Source: Enterobacteria phage mEp213. From it: a DNA stretch of 44,120 bases. Location of the stretch: sequence record NC_019720.1; one strand, 5' to 3'. Positions 502 to 32,636 of this stretch are shown in pieces. A program made the translations under genes and the position numbers. The notes beneath the pieces were generated by a model, which searched no databases, was not told the DNA's origin, and was given only the letters and a program-made list of their open reading frames with translations. The stretch's first letter is position 1, and every line of letters starts with the position of its first letter.

Positions 502-2603
502 TGGCAAAGCGGGCATCCGCCAGGGACATCCGCCGCGATGTTTCCGGTATTTTACGAGCCCCGCGTCGTATGCCGGTGGCCGATGCGGTCAGTACTTATA
601 TGCGCGTGCCAATGGGGGCGGGAAACTCAGTTCCGTGGGATCCGGATCTGGCACCCTATGTGATTGAGCCGATGAACTGTCTGGCATCGCGTGAATACGA
701 TGCGGTGGTGTTTGTGGGCCCAGCGCGAACGGGTAAAACCATCGGGCTGATTGACGGCTGGATCGTTTATAACATTGTCTGCGATCCGGCAGATATGCTT
801 GTAATTCAGGTATCTGAGGAAAAAGCGCGCGAGCATTCCAAAAAACGCCTGGACCGTACTTTTCGCTGTAGCCCTGAAGTTAAAACCCGGCTAAGCCCAA
901 GACGTAACGATAACAACGTCTACGACCGTACATTCCGCGCCGGTAACTATCTGAAGCTGGGCTGGCCATCCGTCAATATCATGTCGTCCTCGGACTATAA
1001 AAGTGTGGCGCTGACGGATTATGACCGCTTTCCGGAAGATATCGACGGGGAGGGGGATGCTTTTTCACTGGCATCGAAACGAACCACGACATTCATGTCC
1101 TCCGGGATGACGCTGGTTGAGAGCTCGCCCGGGAGGGATATCAGAGACACAAAATGGCGGCGCTCCACGCCCCATGAAGCCCCTCCGACCACCGGAATTT
1201 TATCGCTCTATAACCGTGGTGACCGCCGTCGTCTTTACTGGCCATGCCCGCATTGCGGCGAATATTTCCAGCCGGAAATGGACAATATGACCGGATACCG
1301 CGACAGCAGCGATCCTGTGCTTGCCAGCGAAGCGGCGTTTCTTCAGTGCCCTGCCTGTAAAGGCAGGATCACACCGGACATGAAGCGTGCGCTTAACATG
1401 AAATGTGTCTGGCTCCGGGACGGGCAAACCATCGACAGGAAAGGCCTGGTTAGCGGTGATGGCCGTCGTTCCCGTATTGCCTCCTTCTGGATGGAAGGTC
1501 CGGCAGCTGCTTACCAGACCTGGGCGCAGCTTATTTATAAGTTTCTGACCGCCGAGCAGGAATATGAATCCACGCGCAGCGAAGAAACCCTGAAGACGGT
1601 GATCAACACCGATTTCGGCAGGCCCTATTTGCCGCGGGCCAGCATGGAGCAGCGTAAAAGTGAATTGCTCGAGCAGCGTGCCGAAGAAGTCCCAAAACGT
1701 TCGGTACCCGATGGCGTGCAGTTTCTCACTGCGACCGTGGACGTGCAGGCCGGGCGCAACCGGCGCTTTGTTGTGCAGATTACGGGTTATGGAAGTATGG
1801 GTGAGCGCTGGATAGTTGACCGTTACAACATCCGGCATTCGCTGCGCTGCGACGGCAACGGGGAAAGCATTCAGGTGGATCCGGCGAGCTATCCGGAGGA
1901 CTGGGATCTTTTACTCACCGACGTCTTTGATAAAACGTGGCCACTCGCAGCTGACCCGTCAAAGGGCATGCGGCTGATGTCGATGGCCGTGGACTCAGGG
2001 GGTGAAGATGGCGTGACGGATAATGCCTACAAATTCTGGCGCAGATGTCGCCGTGAGGGGCTGGGTAAGCGTATCTATCTCTTCAAGGGGGACAGCGTCA
2101 GGCGCAGCAAACTTATCCAGCGAACGTTTCCCGACAACACGGGCAGATCAACGCGCCGCGCACAGGCGACGGGTGATGTGCCTCTTTATCTTCTCCAGAC
2201 CGATGCCCTTAAAGACCGGGTGAATAATGCGCTGTGGCGTGATTCACCCGGCCCTGGCTATGTGCATTTCCCCGCCTGGCTGGGCAGCTGGTTCTATGAC
2301 GAACTGACGTATGAGGAACGCTCGAATGAAGGGAAATGGAGTAAGCCCGGCCGGGGCGCAAACGAAGCATTTGACCTGCTCGTTTATGCCGACGCGCTCG
2401 CCATCCTTAGTGGTTACGAAAAAATCAAATGGCCGTCAGCTCCTGAGTGGGCACGGCGGGAAACGTGGATCGAGGACACGCAGACGGAAACTGGCGAAAT
2501 GCCATCCCCGCCGCCTGCGCCGAAATCTAAATCAAAACCAAAACGTGAGAAGCCCGTAACCGAGCAGGCTAATCCGTGGTCTTCGTCAGGAGGTTGGGTG
2601 TGA
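501..2603 (+). CDS. Terminase large subunit (lambda gpA family)
   Basis: 700 aa; P-loop-like GPARTGKT, typical gpA-family length and position after small subunit. Confidence 0.9.
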   Translation: MAKRASARDIRRDVSGILRAPRRMPVADAVSTYMRVPMGAGNSVPWDPDLAPYVIEPMNCLASREYDAVVFVGPARTGKTIGLIDGWIVYNIVCDPADMLVIQVSEEKAREHSKKRLDRTFRCSPEVKTRLSPRRNDNNVYDRTFRAGNYLKLGWPSVNIMSSSDYKSVALTDYDRFPEDIDGEGDAFSLASKRTTTFMSSGMTLVESSPGRDIRDTKWRRSTPHEAPPTTGILSLYNRGDRRRLYWPCPHCGEYFQPEMDNMTGYRDSSDPVLASEAAFLQCPACKGRITPDMKRALNMKCVWLRDGQTIDRKGLVSGDGRRSRIASFWMEGPAAAYQTWAQLIYKFLTAEQEYESTRSEETLKTVINTDFGRPYLPRASMEQRKSELLEQRAEEVPKRSVPDGVQFLTATVDVQAGRNRRFVVQITGYGSMGERWIVDRYNIRHSLRCDGNGESIQVDPASYPEDWDLLLTDVFDKTWPLAADPSKGMRLMSMAVDSGGEDGVTDNAYKFWRRCRREGLGKRIYLFKGDSVRRSKLIQRTFPDNTGRSTRRAQATGDVPLYLLQTDALKDRVNNALWRDSPGPGYVHFPAWLGSWFYDELTYEERSNEGKWSKPGRGANEAFDLLVYADALAILSGYEKIKWPSAPEWARRETWIEDTQTETGEMPSPPPAPKSKSKPKREKPVTEQANPWSSSGGWV

Positions 2604-8697: not shown

Positions 8698-9138
8698 ATG
8701 TTTCTGAAAAAAGAGAAGTTCACCTGGCAAACAGAGTCCCTGACCATCTTCGAGCTGTCGGCCCTTCAGCGTATTGAGTTCCTCACGTTTATGGCAAATG
8801 AGGAGAAGGCCGTCAGCGCTGACAGCGATGGCATAAGCGATCAGGAAGTCACGACCCGGCTGATAGGTTCAAATATTCGCTGCGGTGCGCGCTTGATCGC
8901 GATGTCTTTGTGGCATAACGAGCCGGCCGGCACGGATGTGGAAACGTTGTATCAGCAGGTCCTGAGCAGCTGGCCGCCGGAGGCTATCGGCAAAGCCGAA
9001 ATGCAGGTCAAGCTACTATCAGGCATGTTATTCCCCGTTGAAGATGAGAAAGTTGATCATCAGGACGTGGAGGGTTTAACTGACTCCTCTGCTAACGAAG
9101 AATCCGTTACCGCGGAAAAGCCCTTGCCAGCGAGCTGA
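8698..9138 (+). CDS. G: Tail assembly chaperone G
   Basis: MFLK....LSELSALQRIE...AMSLWHN matches lambda gpG. Confidence 0.85.
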   Translation: MFLKKEKFTWQTESLTIFELSALQRIEFLTFMANEEKAVSADSDGISDQEVTTRLIGSNIRCGARLIAMSLWHNEPAGTDVETLYQQVLSSWPPEAIGKAEMQVKLLSGMLFPVEDEKVDHQDVEGLTDSSANEESVTAEKPLPAS

Positions 9139-9461
9139 AGTTTGTCCTGAATCTGGCGCGCGAGTTCGGTCGACCCGACTGGCGCGCCATGCTGGCTGGG
9201 ATGACTTCCAGTGAACTGGGCGACTGGCACCTGTTCTACCGGGAGCATTATTTTCAGGACGCGCAGCTCGATGCGCATTTCTCCGGGCTGCTTTATTCCA
9301 TCTCCACTCTTTTCTTCCGCGATCCGGAACTTACCCCCGCACATTTCAGCCTGCTTTCTCCTTCGGAAAGCGTCATCAGCGATGACGAGCCGGATGATGA
9401 TACGCTGATGACCGCCGCTGAGGGGATAACAGGAGGTATCCGATATGGCCCAGCAGATTAG
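8698..9461 (+). CDS. T: Tail assembly chaperone GT fusion via programmed -1 frameshift (slip near 9114-9120)
   Basis: The -1 frame is open from 9096 to 9461 and overlaps the G 3' end; G GAA AAG sits at the lambda G-T slip position; T-frame stop overlaps H start. Confidence 0.65.
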
Positions 9462-12400
9462 CGACCTGGTCATCAACCTTGATGTCGACAGTGCTACTTT
9501 TAGCGAGCAGGTTGCCCGTATAAAGGGGCAGCTAACCGGAATGGGGGACGAATCCGAAAAAGTCCGCACACGTATGCAGCAGGCCGCAGAATTGCAGGCC
9601 TCGGCGCTTGCTAAAGCAGCGGCAGGCAGCGGTGCGGCCATGTCGGATATGTTGGCTCAGCAGTCAACGGCTGCAGCTGGTCTTAGCGCTGACATGCAAA
9701 AAGTCGGCGAGTCCGTTGAACAAACCTACCAGCGAGTGGCTGGATTAAGTGAGCAACTCAGGGAGAACGCATCCCGGGCATCAGCGCTTGCGCAGCAACA
9801 GGATGCGCTGGCGGCGTCGTTCTATCGACAGATTGACGGCGTGAGGTCGCTGACCGGAGAAACGGACTCTCTGTCGTCGGTTCAGGAGCAATTCCGGAAG
9901 GCCCGTGCGCAGGGGAATATCACGCAGCAGGATTATCTTGCGCTGATATCCCAGACCACAGCCCGGCAAAAAGAACTACAACAGGCCGAAGAAAAAGCCA
10001 GTCAGGCTCGATCCCGGTTTCTTCAACAGCTCAAAACCCAGGTTGAAGAACAAAAATTATCCAGAACCGAATTACTGAATCTGAAGGCCGCGCAACTGGG
10101 TGTAAGTGAAGAAGCTGCACCACTTATTGCAAGACTTCAGGAACAGGAAAATGCATGGAGAAAAGGAACGCTCAGTGCCGGGCAGTATCGCCAGGCGATC
10201 CGTATGTTACCCGCTCAGTTTACGGATATTGCAACCTCGATAGCAGGTGGAATGCCGCTGTGGATGGTCCTGATGCAGCAGGGCGGGCAAATCAGCGATT
10301 CATTTGGTGGAGTCGGTAATCTTTTCCAGATTATCAAAGAAGAATTACTGGGGATTAAATCATCCGCAGATGAATCTGAGGAATCACTTTCTGAAAACGC
10401 CAATGCACTGGCGGAGAATGCAGAACACAGCAGAGGTTTTCTGAGGGCTCTGACTCCAGTACGTCTTGCTATGGGTGGACTTGTCGGGGGGCTGGCACTA
10501 TTGGCCTTTGCCTGGTACAAAGGCAGCAGTGAAGCATCTGAATTTAATAAACAGCTTATTCTGACGGGGAATTATGCCGGTAAGACAACCGGACAGCTGA
10601 GCGATTTAGCTCGCAAAATTTCAGAAACGGCAGGTGTCACCACCGGAAATGCAGCTGCCACTCTTGCGAAGGTTGTTGGTAGCGGGCAGTTCCGGGGAAA
10701 CCAGCTGGAATACATCACCACGGCGGCTGCAGCAATGGAGGACGCGGTCGGGCAGTCGGTTGATAAAACGCTCGCGAACTTTAAGAAATTATATGATTCG
10801 CCAACACAGGCGTCAGAAGAGCTTAACAGTCAGCTACATTACCTCTCGGCAGCTCAGTTCCAATATATTTCCGAGCTTGAGCGCAGGGGGGATAAAGAGG
10901 CGGCAGGAGAAAAGGCCGCGCAGGCTTACAGTGCTGCTGAGCAACAGCGAAGCCAGCAGATACTTGATAACCTGGGTTTGATAGATCGCTTTGTTCGTGG
11001 TGTAACGGATACCTGGGGTGCTTACTGGGATGCCGCCCTGGGTATTGGTCGCCAGCAAACGGCCAGCGATCAGCTGGAGTCTGTCAGGGCGCGGATAAAA
11101 ACACTGACGGATAACACCCGGCCGGGTGTTTTTGGAATGGGCAATACTGGTGATGGGGGGGCCGCAGAAAAAGAGTTGGCCTCATTACGTCAGAAGGAAA
11201 GTGAACTTACTTTTGTAATTCGTTCACAGGAGGGGTACAACCAGGCACAGGCCAAATCGCAGCAGTTGAATACTGAAGGAGTGAAAGCCCAGGGGATACT
11301 GAACAAGTTCCTGGACGCAGGCGCGAGCAAAGCACAGAAAAGGGCAGACGCGGAAAGGGAACTCAATAAAGCCATCACAACCAATGCTGAACTGGTCAAA
11401 AAAACGCAATTTCTTCCTGAGGGCCAGCGCGTTAAGCCTCTCAGTAAGGCAGAAATTGCTCAGGCCAGAAAGGGAATAGAGGAACTCTATAAAGATCCAA
11501 AAGTCCCTAAATCAAAAGGATATACCGCCCCTGCTGGTGACAAAGCCGAGGAAAAGGCGCAGGCCGAACTTCTCACCCTTCAGGCCCAGCTTAAAACGCT
11601 CGAGCAGCATATCAGCGTAAACGACGTTATCAGCAAACAGCGTCAGGATCTCTGGCAGACTGAAAATCAGTTCACCGTTCTGCAGGAGGCCGCGGGGCGT
11701 CGTCAGCTTACGGCGCAGGAAAAATCACTGCTGGCGCACAAGGAAGAAACGCTCGAGTACAAGCGGCAGCTGGCCGACCTGGGAGATAAGGTTGCTCAAC
11801 AGCAAAAGCTCAACCAACTGGCCGATCAGGCCGTGAAGTTTGAGCAGCAGCAAAAAGCCGCCAGGGCGGGCCTGCAGGCTCAGTCTGAGGGGGTATCCAC
11901 CCGGGAAGCAGGGCGACAAACTACGCTGCAGCGCCTCAGCGAAAGCTATTCGTACAACCCTCAGGCGCAGCAAAAGGTTCTCGAAGAGCAAAGGGCGACG
12001 TTCGAGGCTGAAGATGCCCTGCGTGCAAACTGGCTGGCCGGAGCGAAACAGGGCTGGGCCGAATATCAGGATTCAGCGACAAACGTTTTCAGCTCTGTTC
12101 AGCAGATTTCGCAGGCAACGTTCAGCGGGCTGGCGGGCCAGCTTACCAGCCTGACGACAACCGGGAAGGCGAGCTTCAGGGAATTCACCAGCTCGATCCT
12201 TAAAATGATTGTGTCCGTTATCAACCAGCTGCTGGTGGCTTACACCATCCAGAGTGCAATGGGCTGGGTTAGCGGCGGGGCGAAAACCTCCTCTGCCGGT
12301 CAGTCATTCGCGGTCCCGTCATACCGGCCACAGGGTTTTGACGTGGGCGGTTTTACCGGGCACGGCGGCAAGTACGAGCCAGCCGGTATCGTTCACCGCG

Positions 12401-27266: not shown

Positions 27267-27560
27267 TCAGTCATTACTGATAGCGCCATAGCGTGAGCGG
27301 TAATTACGCAGGCGCGGGTCAATTTCAGGGAAGTGGGTATATGTGGCTTTGCGGAATGGTCGGATTGATGTCTGGTAAATTCGCTCGCGTTCTTCTTTCT
27401 CTGCAAGCCATATACAATGGCGAAATTCCTTTTCATCTTTCGTTTCCTGCGGTAGAGACATTATCTGGTCGTAGTTTTTCCTGAATTTATCCAGCACCTC
27501 CGATACGGATTTGCCGGAACAGCGGCGCGGGTCATCCGCACCATACAGAGGCGCTGGCAT
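27267..27560 (-). CDS. Hypothetical protein (97 aa); position and length fit P22 Abc2 but unverified
   Basis: ORF immediately downstream of the erf-ssb pair in the leftward operon. Confidence 0.4.
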
Positions 27561-27583: not shown

Positions 27584-27967
27584 TTAGAAGGGAATTGAAT
27601 CGTCGTATTCAGGATGATTTTGATGATTGCTACTTTGCTGCTGTTGGCTGTTTCCTGAAGTTGCAAATCCAATCTTTGCATTCAGTAATTCAAGAGTGAT
27701 TGATTGACCATTTTGCCCCTGATAAACATCAACCCTGATGTTTTCTCCGGTAATTTCCACAATGCCACCTTCAACAAGAACACTACGGTAGTAATCCGCT
27801 TGCGCTCCTGGCTTGGCAAATACAACGGCGCTGTAGTTTGTCCATTCTTTCTTTTTTGTCTGGCGATCGTAATACTGAACGCCAGCACGGATGTTGAATC
27901 CGATATTTTCCCCGGCCTGAAACTCTCTTGCGGGTTTGTTTAGTCTTACAGTAATCGAATGTGCCAT
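27584..27967 (-). CDS. ssb: Single-stranded DNA-binding protein-like
   Basis: 127 aa; OB-fold-like body and C-terminal acidic tail ending DDSIPF; start overlaps erf stop (TAATG). Confidence 0.55.
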   Translation of the reverse strand: MAHSITVRLNKPAREFQAGENIGFNIRAGVQYYDRQTKKKEWTNYSAVVFAKPGAQADYYRSVLVEGGIVEITGENIRVDVYQGQNGQSITLELLNAKIGFATSGNSQQQQSSNHQNHPEYDDSIPF

Positions 27968-28572
27968 TAAGCAGCCGCTCCTTCTAATTCGTCTCGTCTG
28001 ATGTTGTAAACGTCCTGCGCTTTGTGCTGCTCCGGTGTTCCTTCGAGCATCTTCCACGCTTTGGCGAACGCCTGTTTAAGCTCTTCCACGGTGTTTTTCT
28101 GCATTGCTGCGTCAGTGAATGCTTTTAGAACCTGTTCAGGTGTAGGTGATGGTTTTGATTGCTTTGCTACTGCGTTCTGCTGATGTTTATGCTCGTCTGT
28201 ATCTGCATCTTTCGCATCATCAATGCCGAACAAACCATTGAGGCAATACTTGCGTGCATAAGAGCTTGTAGCTCCCGTAACTTGTGCAGAATCCATCCCT
28301 TTCTTGCTTTCTTCCTCTCGTGCAAGAGCGGTTGCCGTATGACTGTTTTCGCCATCGGTAATAGTTGCCGTGGCTTTCACGTAATACCGATCACCAATCA
28401 ACACAACTTCATCGCTGATTGATAAAAACAGGCCATTCAGTAACGGCTTAACGCCTTCAAGAATGTCTTCGCAGCTTCTGTATTTATATTTTCCGAATGA
28501 GTTGTACTGATTCTTTGGCGCGTTCAGATTTTCCTGAATAGCTGCCAGTCTTGCGTAAAATTCTTTGCTCAT
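27967..28572 (-). CDS. erf: Erf single-strand annealing recombinase (P22 Erf-like)
   Basis: MSKEFYARLAAIQENLNAPKNQYNSFGKYKYRSCEDILEGVKPLL... closely matches remembered P22 Erf. Confidence 0.85.
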   Translation of the reverse strand: MSKEFYARLAAIQENLNAPKNQYNSFGKYKYRSCEDILEGVKPLLNGLFLSISDEVVLIGDRYYVKATATITDGENSHTATALAREEESKKGMDSAQVTGATSSYARKYCLNGLFGIDDAKDADTDEHKHQQNAVAKQSKPSPTPEQVLKAFTDAAMQKNTVEELKQAFAKAWKMLEGTPEQHKAQDVYNIRRDELEGAAA

Positions 28573-28661
28573 ATGATTGTTCTCAGAATGGACATGGCCC
28601 AAGGAAATAACGCTGATTTAATACTTCAGTCTTTGCCGCATTTAAAAATACGCGAACACCT

Positions 28662-28832
28662 TCACGATCTCCCTTCTGGCGATACATTAACGCCTGCTGC
28701 GTGTACATGCGTCTCTGTAACTTGCTCTCCTTCACTGTGGTTGCAAGTGACATGAATATCTCCTTCGTTACCGATTAATTCTTTCATCTGACGAATGAAT
28801 TCTTCGTCTGACCAGTTATCTGTAAAACTCAT
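28662..28832 (-). CDS. Hypothetical small acidic protein (56 aa)
   Basis: ATG overlaps the Kil-like stop (ATGA coupling). Confidence 0.35.
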   Translation of the reverse strand: MSFTDNWSDEEFIRQMKELIGNEGDIHVTCNHSEGEQVTETHVHAAGVNVSPEGRS

Positions 28833-28981
28833 TTCCTGCGATACCACTGAAGGTTGATAGCTGATTTCATCGCTTTATTTGCTTCAAGCCACATTTTTGA
28901 ATCACCAATAAATCTGGCTATTACTGCTTTGTTCTGTGCAGCACGAAGCATCTGGTGATTGATGGCTATTTCATTGCGCAT
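28829..28981 (-). CDS. kil: Kil-like host-killing/cell-division inhibitor (50 aa)
   Basis: IARFIGDSKMWLEA resembles lambda Kil (ATFIGDEKMFREA); directly downstream of cIII-like gene. Confidence 0.5.
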   Translation of the reverse strand: MRNEIAINHQMLRAAQNKAVIARFIGDSKMWLEANKAMKSAINLQWYRRK

Positions 28982-29097
28982 AATAAGACCTCAACTCTTT
29001 TCCATCCGTCACGTAATTTACGGGTGATTCGTTCAAGTAAAGATTCATTTAATTGGAAGGCACCCATGCGAGCGCCTCCCGCGATTGCGTAAATCAT
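28966..29097 (-). CDS. cIII: cIII-like protease inhibitor (43 aa)
   Basis: MIYAIAGG....ESLLERITRKLRDGWKR matches the lambda cIII core from memory; below the ORF-track size cutoff. Confidence 0.65.
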   Translation of the reverse strand: MIYAIAGGARMGAFQLNESLLERITRKLRDGWKRVEVLLCAMK

Positions 29098-29121: not shown

Positions 29122-30090
29122 TTAGTAGGTTATTTTTGTTGCGAATACTTCGCCTTTTACGATGGCTGTTATGATATTTTTAGCAACATCTTCTGATGCA
29201 CCAACCTTGATAAGGTCAGCAAGTATTTTGTTATTTACTTCTTTCCGGTGAGCTTTATCCTTTGCTCTACGCTCTTCTTCTTCCTTGATTCTTTTTTCTT
29301 CTGCTATTCTGGCTTGCTCTTTTGCTTCAGCATCGCGCCGGATTCGTTCAGCCTCCTCCTGTGCTTTTCGGCGTTCTGCTTCAATTGCCGCCTGCTTTTC
29401 TCTTTCAGCTCGTTCTGCTGCCTCTTTTGCTTCGCGCTGTGCTCGTTGCTCGGCCTCAATGCGTTCACGCTCTGCACGTTCCGCTGCGGCCTTAGCTTCT
29501 GCTTCTCTCCTTGCTGCTGCTTCAATTTCGGCTTTTGCCTTTGCTTCGGCTTCTGCTCTGGCTTTCTCTTCAGCTTCTCTTTTTAAGCGTTCTTCATGCT
29601 CTCGCTTTTCCTGCTCCGCTTTGAGTCTTGCCTCTTCTCTTTGGCGGTCAAATTCGCGATCCATCAAAATCGCTATTTCATGGTCAGACTCAATTTGCTT
29701 TGCGAGAGCTTCAGCTGCTGCCTTAGCTTCTTCTTCGGCTTTAATCCGTGCCTGTTCCTCCTCATAATCAGTAAGAGGCTGGCGCGCCTTGGCTTTCAGC
29801 TCATCAAGGCGATCACGCACTGTCTTGCGGTTGGCATCAATTAGCTTTGGAATTTCCTTCAGTTCAGCAACAAGGTCTTTGCCAAGACCATCGAGATATG
29901 TTTTCGTCTGCGCAACTTTATACGCCAGAGAAGCGATCTCCTTTCTGCCCTTTGCCGTTGTGATATCAGGCGCAAAGGACATAACTTCACGTTCAACCCT
30001 TTGAAGGATTTCTTCAATCTGGTCGGCAGACTGAAATACAGTCATTGCATTTGCTTTTTCAATAACAACTAAATCTGTTACTTCACTCAT
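29122..30090 (-). CDS. Charged coiled-coil/single-helix protein (E/R/K/A-rich), unknown function
   Basis: 323 aa from ATG 30090 (GGAGGA RBS); central 200 aa of EEARLKAEQEKREHEERLKREAEEKARAEAEAKAKAE-type repeats. Confidence 0.6.
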   Translation of the reverse strand: MSEVTDLVVIEKANAMTVFQSADQIEEILQRVEREVMSFAPDITTAKGRKEIASLAYKVAQTKTYLDGLGKDLVAELKEIPKLIDANRKTVRDRLDELKAKARQPLTDYEEEQARIKAEEEAKAAAEALAKQIESDHEIAILMDREFDRQREEARLKAEQEKREHEERLKREAEEKARAEAEAKAKAEIEAAARREAEAKAAAERAERERIEAEQRAQREAKEAAERAEREKQAAIEAERRKAQEEAERIRRDAEAKEQARIAEEKRIKEEEERRAKDKAHRKEVNNKILADLIKVGASEDVAKNIITAIVKGEVFATKITY

Positions 30091-30123
30091 ATATCCTCCG
30101 TCAAAAAAAATCGCCCCCACACT

Positions 30124-30191
30124 GGAGGGCAAAGAAGATTTCCAATAATCAGAACAAGTCGGCTCTTGTTTAGTTACGAGCGACATTGCTC
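30124..30191. repeat. 68-bp direct repeat, copy 1, followed by 9-bp-stem hairpin (30193-30220)
   Basis: 67/68 identical to 31521-31588. Confidence 0.9.
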
Positions 30192-30264: not shown

Positions 30265-30588
30265 CTATGCGGCCTTATCTACATTCCTGAACCAAACGCA
30301 GATCGGACCGTCTTCTGTATCGTGAATCGAACCGACAAACCATCCTTCTCCATCTGGCATGCTTGGCTCCCATCCACTGATGTTTGGATTCCCATCTTCA
30401 AAATACGCGTCAATTACCGTTTGATTGTTGTCGTTTTCCATTTCAACAATTGATGATTCAATGCCATGCTGCTTGCAGAAATATCTGAACTCATCAGCTG
30501 AAATTGCCTCTCTATCCCCAAACAGGTTGGCGTATTCTGGGTGCGTCCAGTAGCCATCCTCGCTTCGCTCTACTACTAATGCTTCCAT
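30265..30588 (-). CDS. Hypothetical strongly acidic protein (107 aa)
   Basis: About 23 Asp/Glu versus 6 Lys/Arg; stop overlaps a GGCCG-N6-CGGCC hairpin. Confidence 0.45.
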   Translation of the reverse strand: MEALVVERSEDGYWTHPEYANLFGDREAISADEFRYFCKQHGIESSIVEMENDNNQTVIDAYFEDGNPNISGWEPSMPDGEGWFVGSIHDTEDGPICVWFRNVDKAA

Positions 30589-30650: not shown

Positions 30651-30878
30651 TCATAATTCACTCTTCAATACTTCCAGCTTACTAATCGCCGAAAGATATC
30701 CGCGCTGATAGGGCATCATCATTCCTTCGAGCTTGCCACTTCTTAACTCCTCCCTGAGCAATTGTATTGCTTGATCAATAACCTCTGCCTTAGCGTCCTT
30801 TATGGCTTGCTTGCGGGGCTTTGCTTTCTGCTTTGGCAGATTTCTCAAGCATGATGGAATGTATGTCTGATTCATCAC
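30651..30878 (-). CDS. Hypothetical protein (75 aa)
   Basis: ORF contiguous with the upstream gene. Confidence 0.4.
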   Translation of the reverse strand: MMNQTYIPSCLRNLPKQKAKPRKQAIKDAKAEVIDQAIQLLREELRSGKLEGMMMPYQRGYLSAISKLEVLKSEL

Positions 30879-31151
30879 TTACCTCGCCGTCAGTTGTTTT
30901 GATTTCCGGTATCCTGCCGCGTAAATGGCTACGTTTGGCAGGCAAATACTTCCACTGCATTCTTCTGCCTTCTTGCAGCGAAGGCTTCCGAGTGATGCTG
31001 CTTTGTCTGCTCTGACGCAACCAGAGAGCTTTAGCGCAATTTTTCGCGCCAGTCGCTGTTCTTGCATTGCCTGCTCACGTTGAGCCTGTCTGCGTGCTCT
31101 GCGGCGATTTCTGGCGTTATCGTCAGCCAGATATGTAATGACTACTGTCAT
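30879..31151 (-). CDS. Hypothetical protein with Arg-rich N-terminus and four Cys (90 aa)
   Basis: ARNRRRARRQAQREQ segment followed by a Cys cluster. Confidence 0.4.
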   Translation of the reverse strand: MTVVITYLADDNARNRRRARRQAQREQAMQEQRLARKIALKLSGCVRADKAASLGSLRCKKAEECSGSICLPNVAIYAAGYRKSKQLTAR

Positions 31152-31520: not shown

Positions 31521-31588
31521 GGAGGGCAAAGAAGATTTCCAATAATCAGAACAAGTCGGCTCCTGTTTAGTTACGAGCGACATTGCTC
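31521..31588. repeat. 68-bp direct repeat, copy 2, followed by 8-bp-stem hairpin (31591-31614)
   Basis: 67/68 identical to 30124-30191; adjacent hairpin has a different stem but a loop again beginning CTCG. Confidence 0.9.
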
Positions 31589-32303: not shown

Positions 32304-32636
32304 TCACCCCTCATACAGTAGCTTACTGCCTAATTTCATTTTCTGGCGACCAACACAAGTCACACCCATTTCACTGCGTGGCTTGCTGTACCATGTGCGC
32401 TGATTCTTGCGCTCAATACGTTGCAGGTTGCTTTCAATCTGTTCGTGGTATTCAGCCAGTACCGTAAGGTCTATCGGATTCAGTGCGCTTTCTACTCGTG
32501 ATTTCGGTTTGCGATTCAGCGAGAGAATAGGGCGGTTAACAGGTTTTGCGCTTACCCCAACCAACAGGGGATTTGCTGCTTTCCATTGAGCCTGTTTCTC
32601 TGCGCGACGTTCGCGGCGGCGTGTTTGTGCATCCAT
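32304..32636 (-). CDS. N: Antitermination protein N (lambda-like)
   Basis: MDAQTRRRERRAEKQAQWKAANPLLVGVSAKPVNRPILSLNRKPKSRVESALNPIDLTVLAEYH matches lambda N from memory; divergent C-terminus. Confidence 0.9.
   Translation of the reverse strand: MDAQTRRRERRAEKQAQWKAANPLLVGVSAKPVNRPILSLNRKPKSRVESALNPIDLTVLAEYHEQIESNLQRIERKNQRTWYSKPRSEMGVTCVGRQKMKLGSKLLYEG

Follow-up and report, generated by a model that had tools for sequence, protein, structure and literature searches.

Phage annealing systems, such as Red, RecET and Erf, drive genome mosaicism and underpin recombineering, whose efficiency in hosts other than E. coli is held back by accessory requirements yet to be identified. In phages of Firmicutes, the slot upstream of erf-ssb or sak4-ssb holds Mu-Gam-like, DUF2483, DUF1351 or Sipho_Gp157 genes, for which the authors inferred an analogous function (PMC8093625). 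The gene considered here lies at positions 29122..30090 (minus strand) of the genome of Enterobacteria phage mEp213 (NC_019720.1; 44,120 nucleotides, the whole of which is referred to below as the window) and encodes a 322-aa protein with a long charged helix. Its closest described relatives are gene 33 of Sf6, Orf53 of D3 and gp65 of JBD44, which are true homologues with the same tripartite plan and the same place beside recombination genes, and from which the mEp213 gene shows no difference of substance. Given that these homologues are uncharacterised, family membership gives no function, and no functional study of Sf6 gene 33, of the mEp213 gene or of an Erf accessory protein of this kind was found in the literature. 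As a sequence the protein is already known (Sf6 gp33 / D3 Orf53 / PHROG 1376), PHROG 1376 carrying the label function unknown. What is new, as far as could be found, is the conserved architecture of the family and its synteny with recombination modules, of which we met no prior description in the literature.

Members of this family regularly form part of the homologous-recombination module of phages, usually standing directly upstream of erf. We surveyed 75 loci from the genomes of 75 species, using a 16-sequence core alignment as the query; neighbouring genes were clustered, the clusters were named by Pfam, and all open reading frames (ORFs) were searched for recombination genes. Of the 75 loci, 61 had an ERF-family gene on the same strand and no more than 5 kb away, and in 33 of them the distance was at most 100 nt. 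RecT was found in four further loci, and any of Erf, RecT, single-stranded DNA-binding protein (SSB), YqaJ or a DUF3799 nuclease in 70 of the 75; several of the remaining loci are truncated contigs or gene fragments. Among 80 prophage loci of the E. coli type, Erf was detected in 71 and Sak4 in four. The intergenic gap to the recombinase is often 7-10 nt, and both the gene order and the fold of the recombinase vary. In D3 and JBD44 the family gene is followed by Erf and then by a YqaJ exonuclease, in Pseudomonas syringae phage phiPSA1 by Sak4, SSB and an exonuclease, and in Acinetobacter phage TCUAN1 by a Bet-like gene, while Serratia phage Eta shows the family gene, exoVIII and bet in this order with other genes between them. 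The family gene comes after a recombinase and SSB in Vibrio phage BT-1011, and between recE-recT and rdgC in Iodobacter phage PhiPLPE. An Stx1a phage carries an allele with 98% DNA identity to that of mEp213, followed by cIII, kil, gam, bet and exo. Since nearly the same allele is located beside gam-bet-exo and beside Erf or Sak4, the association is with the recombination module and not with one annealing-protein fold. A first-pass annotation of this DNA, made from the letters alone, could see neither the large conserved family nor its synteny with annealing recombinases, above all Erf, which gives a functional lead.

The size of the family became apparent from profile searches. phrog_1376 matched the protein over its full length (E = 2e-108, profile positions 1-362 of 362), and a HMMER search with the N-terminal 125 aa returned 4,985 members at E<=1e-3 and 3,515 at E<=1e-10, counted as cluster representatives at 50% identity. 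Of the 138 best new representatives, 113 are 250-430 aa long and end in the same C-terminal motif, the plan of head, rod and knob being kept. Alleles with 98% DNA identity occur in many lambdoid and P22-like phages, among them Sf6 (gene 33), HK544, mEp234, mEp043, CUS-3, Sf101, IME10 and some Stx1a phages. D3 Orf53 and JBD44 gp65 share ~50% identity with the mEp213 protein in the N-terminal domain. The family is one of temperate phages of Proteobacteria; its members, phage-borne or in prophages, come from the Gamma and Beta classes, with a few from Alphaproteobacteria, and the host groups comprise Enterobacterales, Pseudomonas, Vibrio, Aeromonas, Acinetobacter, Shewanella, Achromobacter, Alcaligenes and Bordetella. 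Only 25 plasmid records contain the family, all of them phage-sized or chromosome-like, and a link to conjugative leading regions was sought in these 25 records and not found.

Searches of Pfam, NCBIfam, PADLOC and PDB sequences gave no significant match, whether the query was the whole protein or one of its ends, and none of 117 family members matches an informative Pfam family. A profile of the 117 members matched PDB entries via the charged helix only (Ensconsin, Zuotin, DDRGK1 and ATP synthase b); these are long charged helical proteins, and the matches therefore reflect composition and not ancestry. A fold search of the PDB gave no match and no likeness to Gam, Ku-like or known anti-defence folds. 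The full protein was without a match in PADLOC-DB, and a Cas10 match on an N-terminal fragment (E = 0.009) is noise. The first-pass annotation had allowed that the protein might turn out to belong to a known recombination or structural family with an established role; no such family emerged from these Pfam, NCBIfam, PDB and PADLOC searches. Homology searching with the terminal domains gave no significant Pfam or PDB match; the search with the N-terminal 125 aa brought out the very large PHROG 1376 family.

The protein is predicted to be built of a conserved head of ~110 aa, a charged alpha-helix of 20-28 nm and a knob of ~45 aa. In the AlphaFold2 (AF2) model, a helical bundle forms the head and a small knob the C-terminus, and one helix at residues 108-295 (188 aa) joins the two; for most of this helix the predicted local distance difference test score (pLDDT) exceeds 90. 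The model is that of a monomer, which does not discriminate a single alpha-helix from a coiled coil. The short globular ends that had been suggested from the letters thus have their counterparts in the model. For a homologue of 221 aa, the model built from an alignment of 119 sequences has a mean pLDDT of 90 and one helix at residues 81-194. The length of the rod is estimated at ~20 nm for residues 150-285 and at ~28 nm for the whole predicted helix.

The putative head (aa 1-110; 29761..30090, minus strand) is delimited by its conserved consensus, D.sTakGRkeIAS.A.kVa.sKTyLDg.GK.LVa..Ke.pK.iDa.RK..Rd.LD.LkdevR.PLt.WE., and the mEp213 protein has all of the invariant columns (R49, G70, K78, D85, R88, P105 and E110). 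Both the conserved N-terminal core (GRkeIAS ... sKTyLDg.GK ... pK.iDa.RK ... R.PLt.WE) and the C-terminal I.Y ending are present. The next segment (aa 111-149; 29644..29760, minus strand), defined by alignment and sliding composition, contains the first charged helical stretch and a ESDHEIAILMDREFDRQ segment that is conserved in the Enterobacterales homologues. It is followed by the core of the ER/K-type charged helix (aa 150-285; 29236..29643, minus strand), which is assigned from charge statistics and the AF2 helix and would span ~20 nm if fully helical. The knob (aa 286-322; 29125..29235, minus strand) is recognised by the motif shared by the 113 representatives mentioned above, HR..IN..A...L...G.....AK....AIA.G.I..V.I.Y, which starts slightly earlier, at H281. 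Y322 is almost invariant in the family, and the mEp213 protein terminates in ...AKNIITAIVKGEVFATKITY.

The charge pattern of the rod is unusual for this genome. Residues 141-290 consist of E (27%), A (23%), R (18%) and K (11%). Within residues 150-285 there are 53 pairs of opposite charge at i/i+4, with no acid-acid and only four base-base pairs at this spacing, and like charges recur at i+8, corresponding to a charge period of ~8. When the i/i+3 and i/i+4 spacings are combined, 76 opposite-charge pairs are counted vs 49.8 +/- 5.4 in shuffled sequences (z = 4.8). The same region is charge-balanced (net -1), contains eight non-Ala hydrophobic residues in 136 (6%), and showed no heptad signal when one was sought. 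When all 73 ORFs that reach 120 aa in the six frames of the window are compared, this one is the extreme outlier with 40 opposite-charge i/i+4 pairs per 100 aa, the others having 3.7 +/- 2.8 and at most 15. The near-continuous alternation of acidic and basic residues proposed in the first-pass annotation is thereby borne out. Its helix of roughly 200 residues agrees with the 188 aa predicted by AF2 and is too long for the strictly charged core, which is nearer 135-175 aa; the purest ER/K stretch covers ~135 aa (150-285), to which residues 107-131 can be added.

The dense opposite-charge pairs, the period of ~8 and the scarcity of hydrophobic residues that characterise ER/K single alpha-helices extend over 136 aa in this protein, and the same is seen family-wide. 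The middle region of family members has a median length of 181 aa (interquartile range 157-197), of which 48% is charged, 21% Ala and 0.7% Pro plus Gly; its net charge is never positive, the median i/i+4 z is 4.5, and z exceeds 2 in 95% of the members. Its sequence is not conserved between members, while its character is; large in-frame deletions in the charged region distinguish close alleles of E. coli, the proteins of which have 245, 261 and 322 aa. Residues ~150-285 carry a textbook ER/K single-alpha-helix signature, which would imply a monomeric and stiff rod. In this respect the protein resembles the ER/K single-alpha-helix linkers of myosin VI/X, Zuotin and MAP7/Ensconsin, with E/R/K/A/Q at 85% or more, dense i/i+4 pairs, a period of ~8, near absence of hydrophobic residues, Pro and Gly, and a place between two folded domains. 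The likeness is one of motif and not of homology, and unlike those linkers the phage helix is rich in Ala (21-23%) with a weak 11/3 periodicity. No description of an ER/K linker in a protein of a phage recombination module was found in the searchable literature. What is kept of the helix is its length and composition, not its sequence; provided that it is monomeric, a virus would here offer a natural example of a spacer on which selection acts.

The reading of the rod as either a single alpha-helix or a coiled-coil spacer, offered in the first-pass annotation, fits the ER/K pattern in the protein and in the family as well as the single long helix of the AF2 model. The second of these options would leave family and context as they are and turn the rod into a coiled coil, either homodimeric or antiparallel, whose seam is rich in Ala as in the hendecad stalk of ATP synthase b; the protein would then have the form of a two-headed rod. 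It draws on the Ala content of the region and on a spectral peak of Ala plus hydrophobic residues at ~3.7 residues (11/3), the power of which averages 2.56x expectation over the family and has a nominal p of 0.004 in the mEp213 protein, and also on the weak match of the family profile to ATP synthase subunit b (E = 0.008). Over the whole spectrum, however, the peak is not significant, as 61% of shuffled sequences match or exceed its maximum; the eight non-Ala hydrophobic residues without a heptad signal are against such a seam, and the strong i/i+4 salt-bridge pattern with a charge period of ~8 is typical of single alpha-helices. We consider the coiled coil somewhat unlikely.

Given thousands of members, a conserved plan, the lack of a Pfam model and the adjacency to Erf, this family is an obvious candidate for an accessory factor. 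With moderate confidence we propose that the protein acts as an accessory adaptor or tether of phage recombination modules, a mechanism suggested by the position of the gene. As a soluble delayed-early protein it would serve the recombination machinery by binding a different partner with each of its end domains, the charged helix keeping the two partners at a set distance. Candidate partners would be SSB-coated single-stranded DNA (ssDNA), DNA ends, or a host replication or recombination protein. An almost identical allele accompanies Erf, Sak4 or Bet, which makes elements common to these modules more probable partners than one annealing protein, and, as the protein is acidic and has no strongly basic ends, naked DNA is a less likely partner than such shared elements. 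If the protein is a true helper of Erf-type systems, co-expressing it could make recombineering more efficient in Pseudomonas, Vibrio, Aeromonas and their relatives.

Several observations weigh against an adaptor or tether in recombination. Operon adjacency is guilt by association only, and in coliphages cIII and kil lie between the family gene and erf. The acidic charge of the protein (pI ~5.4) and the lack of strong basic character in its end domains do not suggest direct DNA binding, and the weak 11/3 periodicity of Ala and hydrophobic residues leaves room for a dimeric Ala-stripe coiled coil in place of a monomeric spacer. Co-variation with the adjacent Erf is limited, with a Mantel r of 0.28-0.39, which is permutation-significant and confounded by linkage, vs 0.75 for Erf and YqaJ. 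Phage P22 presumably has Erf without this gene, in which case the gene is not needed for Erf action. A 2025 survey of 325 lambdoid recombination modules also omits the gene (PMC12315714).

A more far-reaching form of the adaptor proposal would have the protein as a general component of the module whatever the annealing protein, on a par with the exonuclease, annealing protein, SSB and anti-RecBCD functions. As a spacer of ~20-30 nm it would couple SSB-ssDNA or the annealing protein, bound by one end domain, to a host machine such as the replisome or RecBCD, bound by the other; it would then be among the first natural ER/K single-alpha-helix rulers with a defined job in a bacterial virus. In this extended form we regard the proposal as rather unlikely.

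Another function that can be considered is the protection of phage DNA, or the countering of a host nuclease or defence, as a functional analogue of Mu Gam-like proteins. The positional analogy to the Mu-Gam-like, DUF1351 and Gp157 genes (PMC8093625; MM1), the independence from the fold of the annealing protein, the acidic overall charge and the place in the early operon among the host-directed genes cIII, kil and abc2 are all consistent with such a role. In Streptococcus phage MM1, Erf is followed by a 330-aa DUF1351 protein, close in size to the mEp213 protein, but this has a short charged stretch only, vs the ER/K helix of ~180 aa in the phage family. None of the 117 family members matches DUF1351 (PF07083) at E<=0.01, and hhalign of the family profile against DUF1351 gave a probability of 0.4% with a single sequence and of 0.8% with a shallow Streptococcus alignment (at least 79% identity); the likeness is therefore positional and not demonstrably ancestral. 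Against a protective role, the family gene co-occurs with RecBCD modulators (Abc2 in 65 or more of the 80 E. coli-type loci, Gam in the Stx1a phage), so that a simple anti-RecBCD activity would be redundant. Unlike a DNA mimic, moreover, the helix is charge-balanced over residues 150-285, and the fold and PADLOC searches described above speak against a Gam, Ku-like or known anti-defence protein. Such a role therefore seems improbable to us.

The gene could also be an accessory, moron-like early gene with a host-directed role outside recombination, its adjacency to erf reflecting the standard order of early operons. The interposed cIII and kil, the weak co-evolution with Erf and the omission from the lambdoid survey (PMC12315714) would all fit this, as would the mosaic boundary sequence that borders the gene. 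The adjacency is, however, kept in phages that are very distant from one another, with hosts that include Pseudomonas, Vibrio, Aeromonas, Acinetobacter, Achromobacter and Iodobacter, and its persistence despite varied order and fold, with gaps of 7-10 nt, is not predicted by a generic operon order. We hold a role outside recombination to be quite improbable.

In GenBank and RefSeq the protein is named 'TolA' or 'cell envelope biogenesis protein TolA'. Domain II of TolA is a long Ala/Lys/Glu-rich helix, and it is because the charged Ala/Glu/Lys-rich helical middle domain of the phage protein resembles it that annotation pipelines assign this name. TolA membership was rejected: NCBIfam TIGR02794 (tolA_full) scored 9.0 bits against a cutoff of 59.45 (E = 0.72), the match being limited to residues 89-256 in the charged region, and the Pfam TolA domain matched neither the mEp213 protein nor any of the 117 family members. 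There is no N-terminal transmembrane anchor (maximum 19-aa Kyte-Doolittle mean 1.03, longest uncharged run 10 aa), and the C-terminal 70 aa gave no Pfam match beyond chance coiled-coil ones and contain no TolA domain III. Unlike TolA, then, the protein is phage-encoded and predicted to be cytoplasmic, with end domains unrelated to domains I and III. The 'TolA' label is a composition artefact. A TolA-like role in the cell envelope, favoured by the database names and the similarly long charged helix of domain II, is extremely improbable in view of the low score and of the missing domain, anchor and related ends. The 'TolA' and 'cell envelope biogenesis' labels on hundreds of phage and prophage records merit correction.

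The coding sequence, with its stop codon at 29122-29124, was assigned from the ORF and its translation, and belongs to the Sf6 gp33 / D3 Orf53 / PHROG 1376 family. GenBank PV340538.1 (Escherichia phage mEp213) is 100% identical across a 1,065-nt stretch spanning the ORF and annotates the gene at identical coordinates; its counterpart in Sf6 is gene 33. The ATG at 30090 is the start in every GenBank record and gives 322 aa plus a stop, the 323 aa of the first-pass annotation having arisen because the stop codon was counted, while its assignment to the early genes stands, with the gene in the PL operon. A Shine-Dalgarno sequence GGAGG (30095..30099, minus strand), read from the sequence, is located 4 nt upstream of this ATG and gives the gene a strong ribosome-binding site. 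Further upstream lies a tL2a-type, intrinsic-terminator-like hairpin (30111-30132) with a T8 run (30103..30132 in all, minus strand), identified by a terminator scan, and the Sf6 annotation has at the equivalent place 'terminator; homology to phage lambda; tL2A'. A 354-aa reading from 30186 was rejected as the gene; it passes through the hairpin and the T8 run, and the short form starting at ATG 30090 is therefore taken as the gene. Given a tL2a-type terminator ahead of it, the gene is predicted to be expressed from PL by N-antiterminated transcription, just after the terminator in the PL operon.

Copy 1 of a 68-nt direct repeat (30124..30191), found by a repeat search, ends 33 nt upstream of the start codon, in agreement with the first-pass placement of the gene immediately downstream of this copy; copy 2 is at 31521-31588 and is 99% identical. 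Copy 1 occupies the place of the Sf6 'bsq4 boundary sequence' (a misc_feature), a module junction. The GAA/GCT-rich DNA of the gene does produce spurious antisense ORFs, as had been noted from the letters, with 160 aa (29285-29767) and 112 aa (29248-29586) on the plus strand. Tandem DNA repeats inside the gene are restricted to a degenerate GCTTCT array.

Downstream of the gene, on the same strand, the order of neighbours in mEp213 begins with cIII (28966..29097, minus strand; Pfam Lambda_CIII, E = 4e-15) and kil (28829..28981, minus strand; Pfam Lambda_Kil, E = 1.6e-20). A small Arf-like ORF (phrog_2123), likewise on this strand, is listed between kil and erf. The single-strand annealing protein gene erf (27967..28602, minus strand) is assigned by Pfam ERF (E = 6.5e-44) and phrog_155; PV340538.1 calls this gene (27967-28602, minus strand) 'Bet / recombination protein Bet', which is a mis-annotation of an ERF-family protein, like 'TolA'. 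Next come ssb (27584..28057, minus strand; phrog_44, E = 1.5e-29), for which the annotated start gives 27584-27967, and abc2, encoding anti-RecBCD protein 2 (27267..27560, minus strand; Pfam PF11043 Anti-RecBCD_p2, E = 9.6e-63).

A number of family loci depart from the intact gene. Frameshifts in the repetitive charged region often split it into N- and C-terminal ORFs, and such split ORFs correspond to PHROGs 17211 and 21365 and to 'hypothetical protein (x2)' annotations. Sometimes a deletion has fused it to another gene, as in P0078, where its first 80 aa are followed by the C-terminus of Abc2. Such split or fused copies (loci L034, L075, L086, L088, L091, L092, L155 and L166; proteins P0078, P0118, P0072 and P0100) may come from defective prophages in decay or from errors in sequencing the repeat. 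Domain shuffling was considered and rejected, as the knob-only ORFs in the fetched loci are nearly all frameshift-split copies of the gene, and the 'fusions' to other Pfam domains among the homologues are deletion or frameshift chimeras, P0078 among them. A divergent knob-only ORF of ~83 aa (...EKNRAIVKALMASPSKFSEDQAKDIVRMIIKGELGSVEINY) at 1101-1388 (minus strand) of locus L147, on the Bacillota metagenome-assembled genome (MAG) contig DASRVY010000039.1, adjoins a copy of the full gene that is truncated by the contig end; this ORF may represent a knob domain that occurs on its own, or may have arisen as an artefact of assembly or inversion.

Family members were also encountered on short MAG contigs assigned to Actinomycetes (L093), Coriobacteriia (L125) and Pirellulaceae (L151). 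In one such non-proteobacterial member the matched 70-aa core is 100% identical to the allele of an E. coli phage, and these members most likely represent binning contamination rather than true host range. In five loci of the Aeromonas type, the family gene is followed by a coiled-coil protein of 406-409 aa without a Pfam match (e.g., in Aeromonas prophages, at 9049-10278 of locus L102, and in L103, at position +1 or +2 from the gene), the C-terminus of which looks helix-hairpin-helix-like by eye (...KVRGIGEKLIGQIV...). This protein may be another component of the module.

In the upstream early region of mEp213, the two repeat copies bracket a segment of ~1.4 kb of the PL operon. Two early genes, at 30265-30588 and 30651-30878 (both on the minus strand), sit between the first N-like gene and the charged-helix gene; one of them is phrog_1372 and the other is without a family match, and neither has a Pfam or PADLOC match. 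Two different antiterminator genes of the N family stand in tandem, at 30879-31151 and 32304-32636 (both on the minus strand), one of them belonging to Pfam N_peptide PF25694 (E = 7.7e-16) and the other to the lambda N36 type PF11438 (E = 1.7e-26). The repeat and the tandem N genes together suggest that a module was duplicated or inserted through recombination at the boundary sequence.

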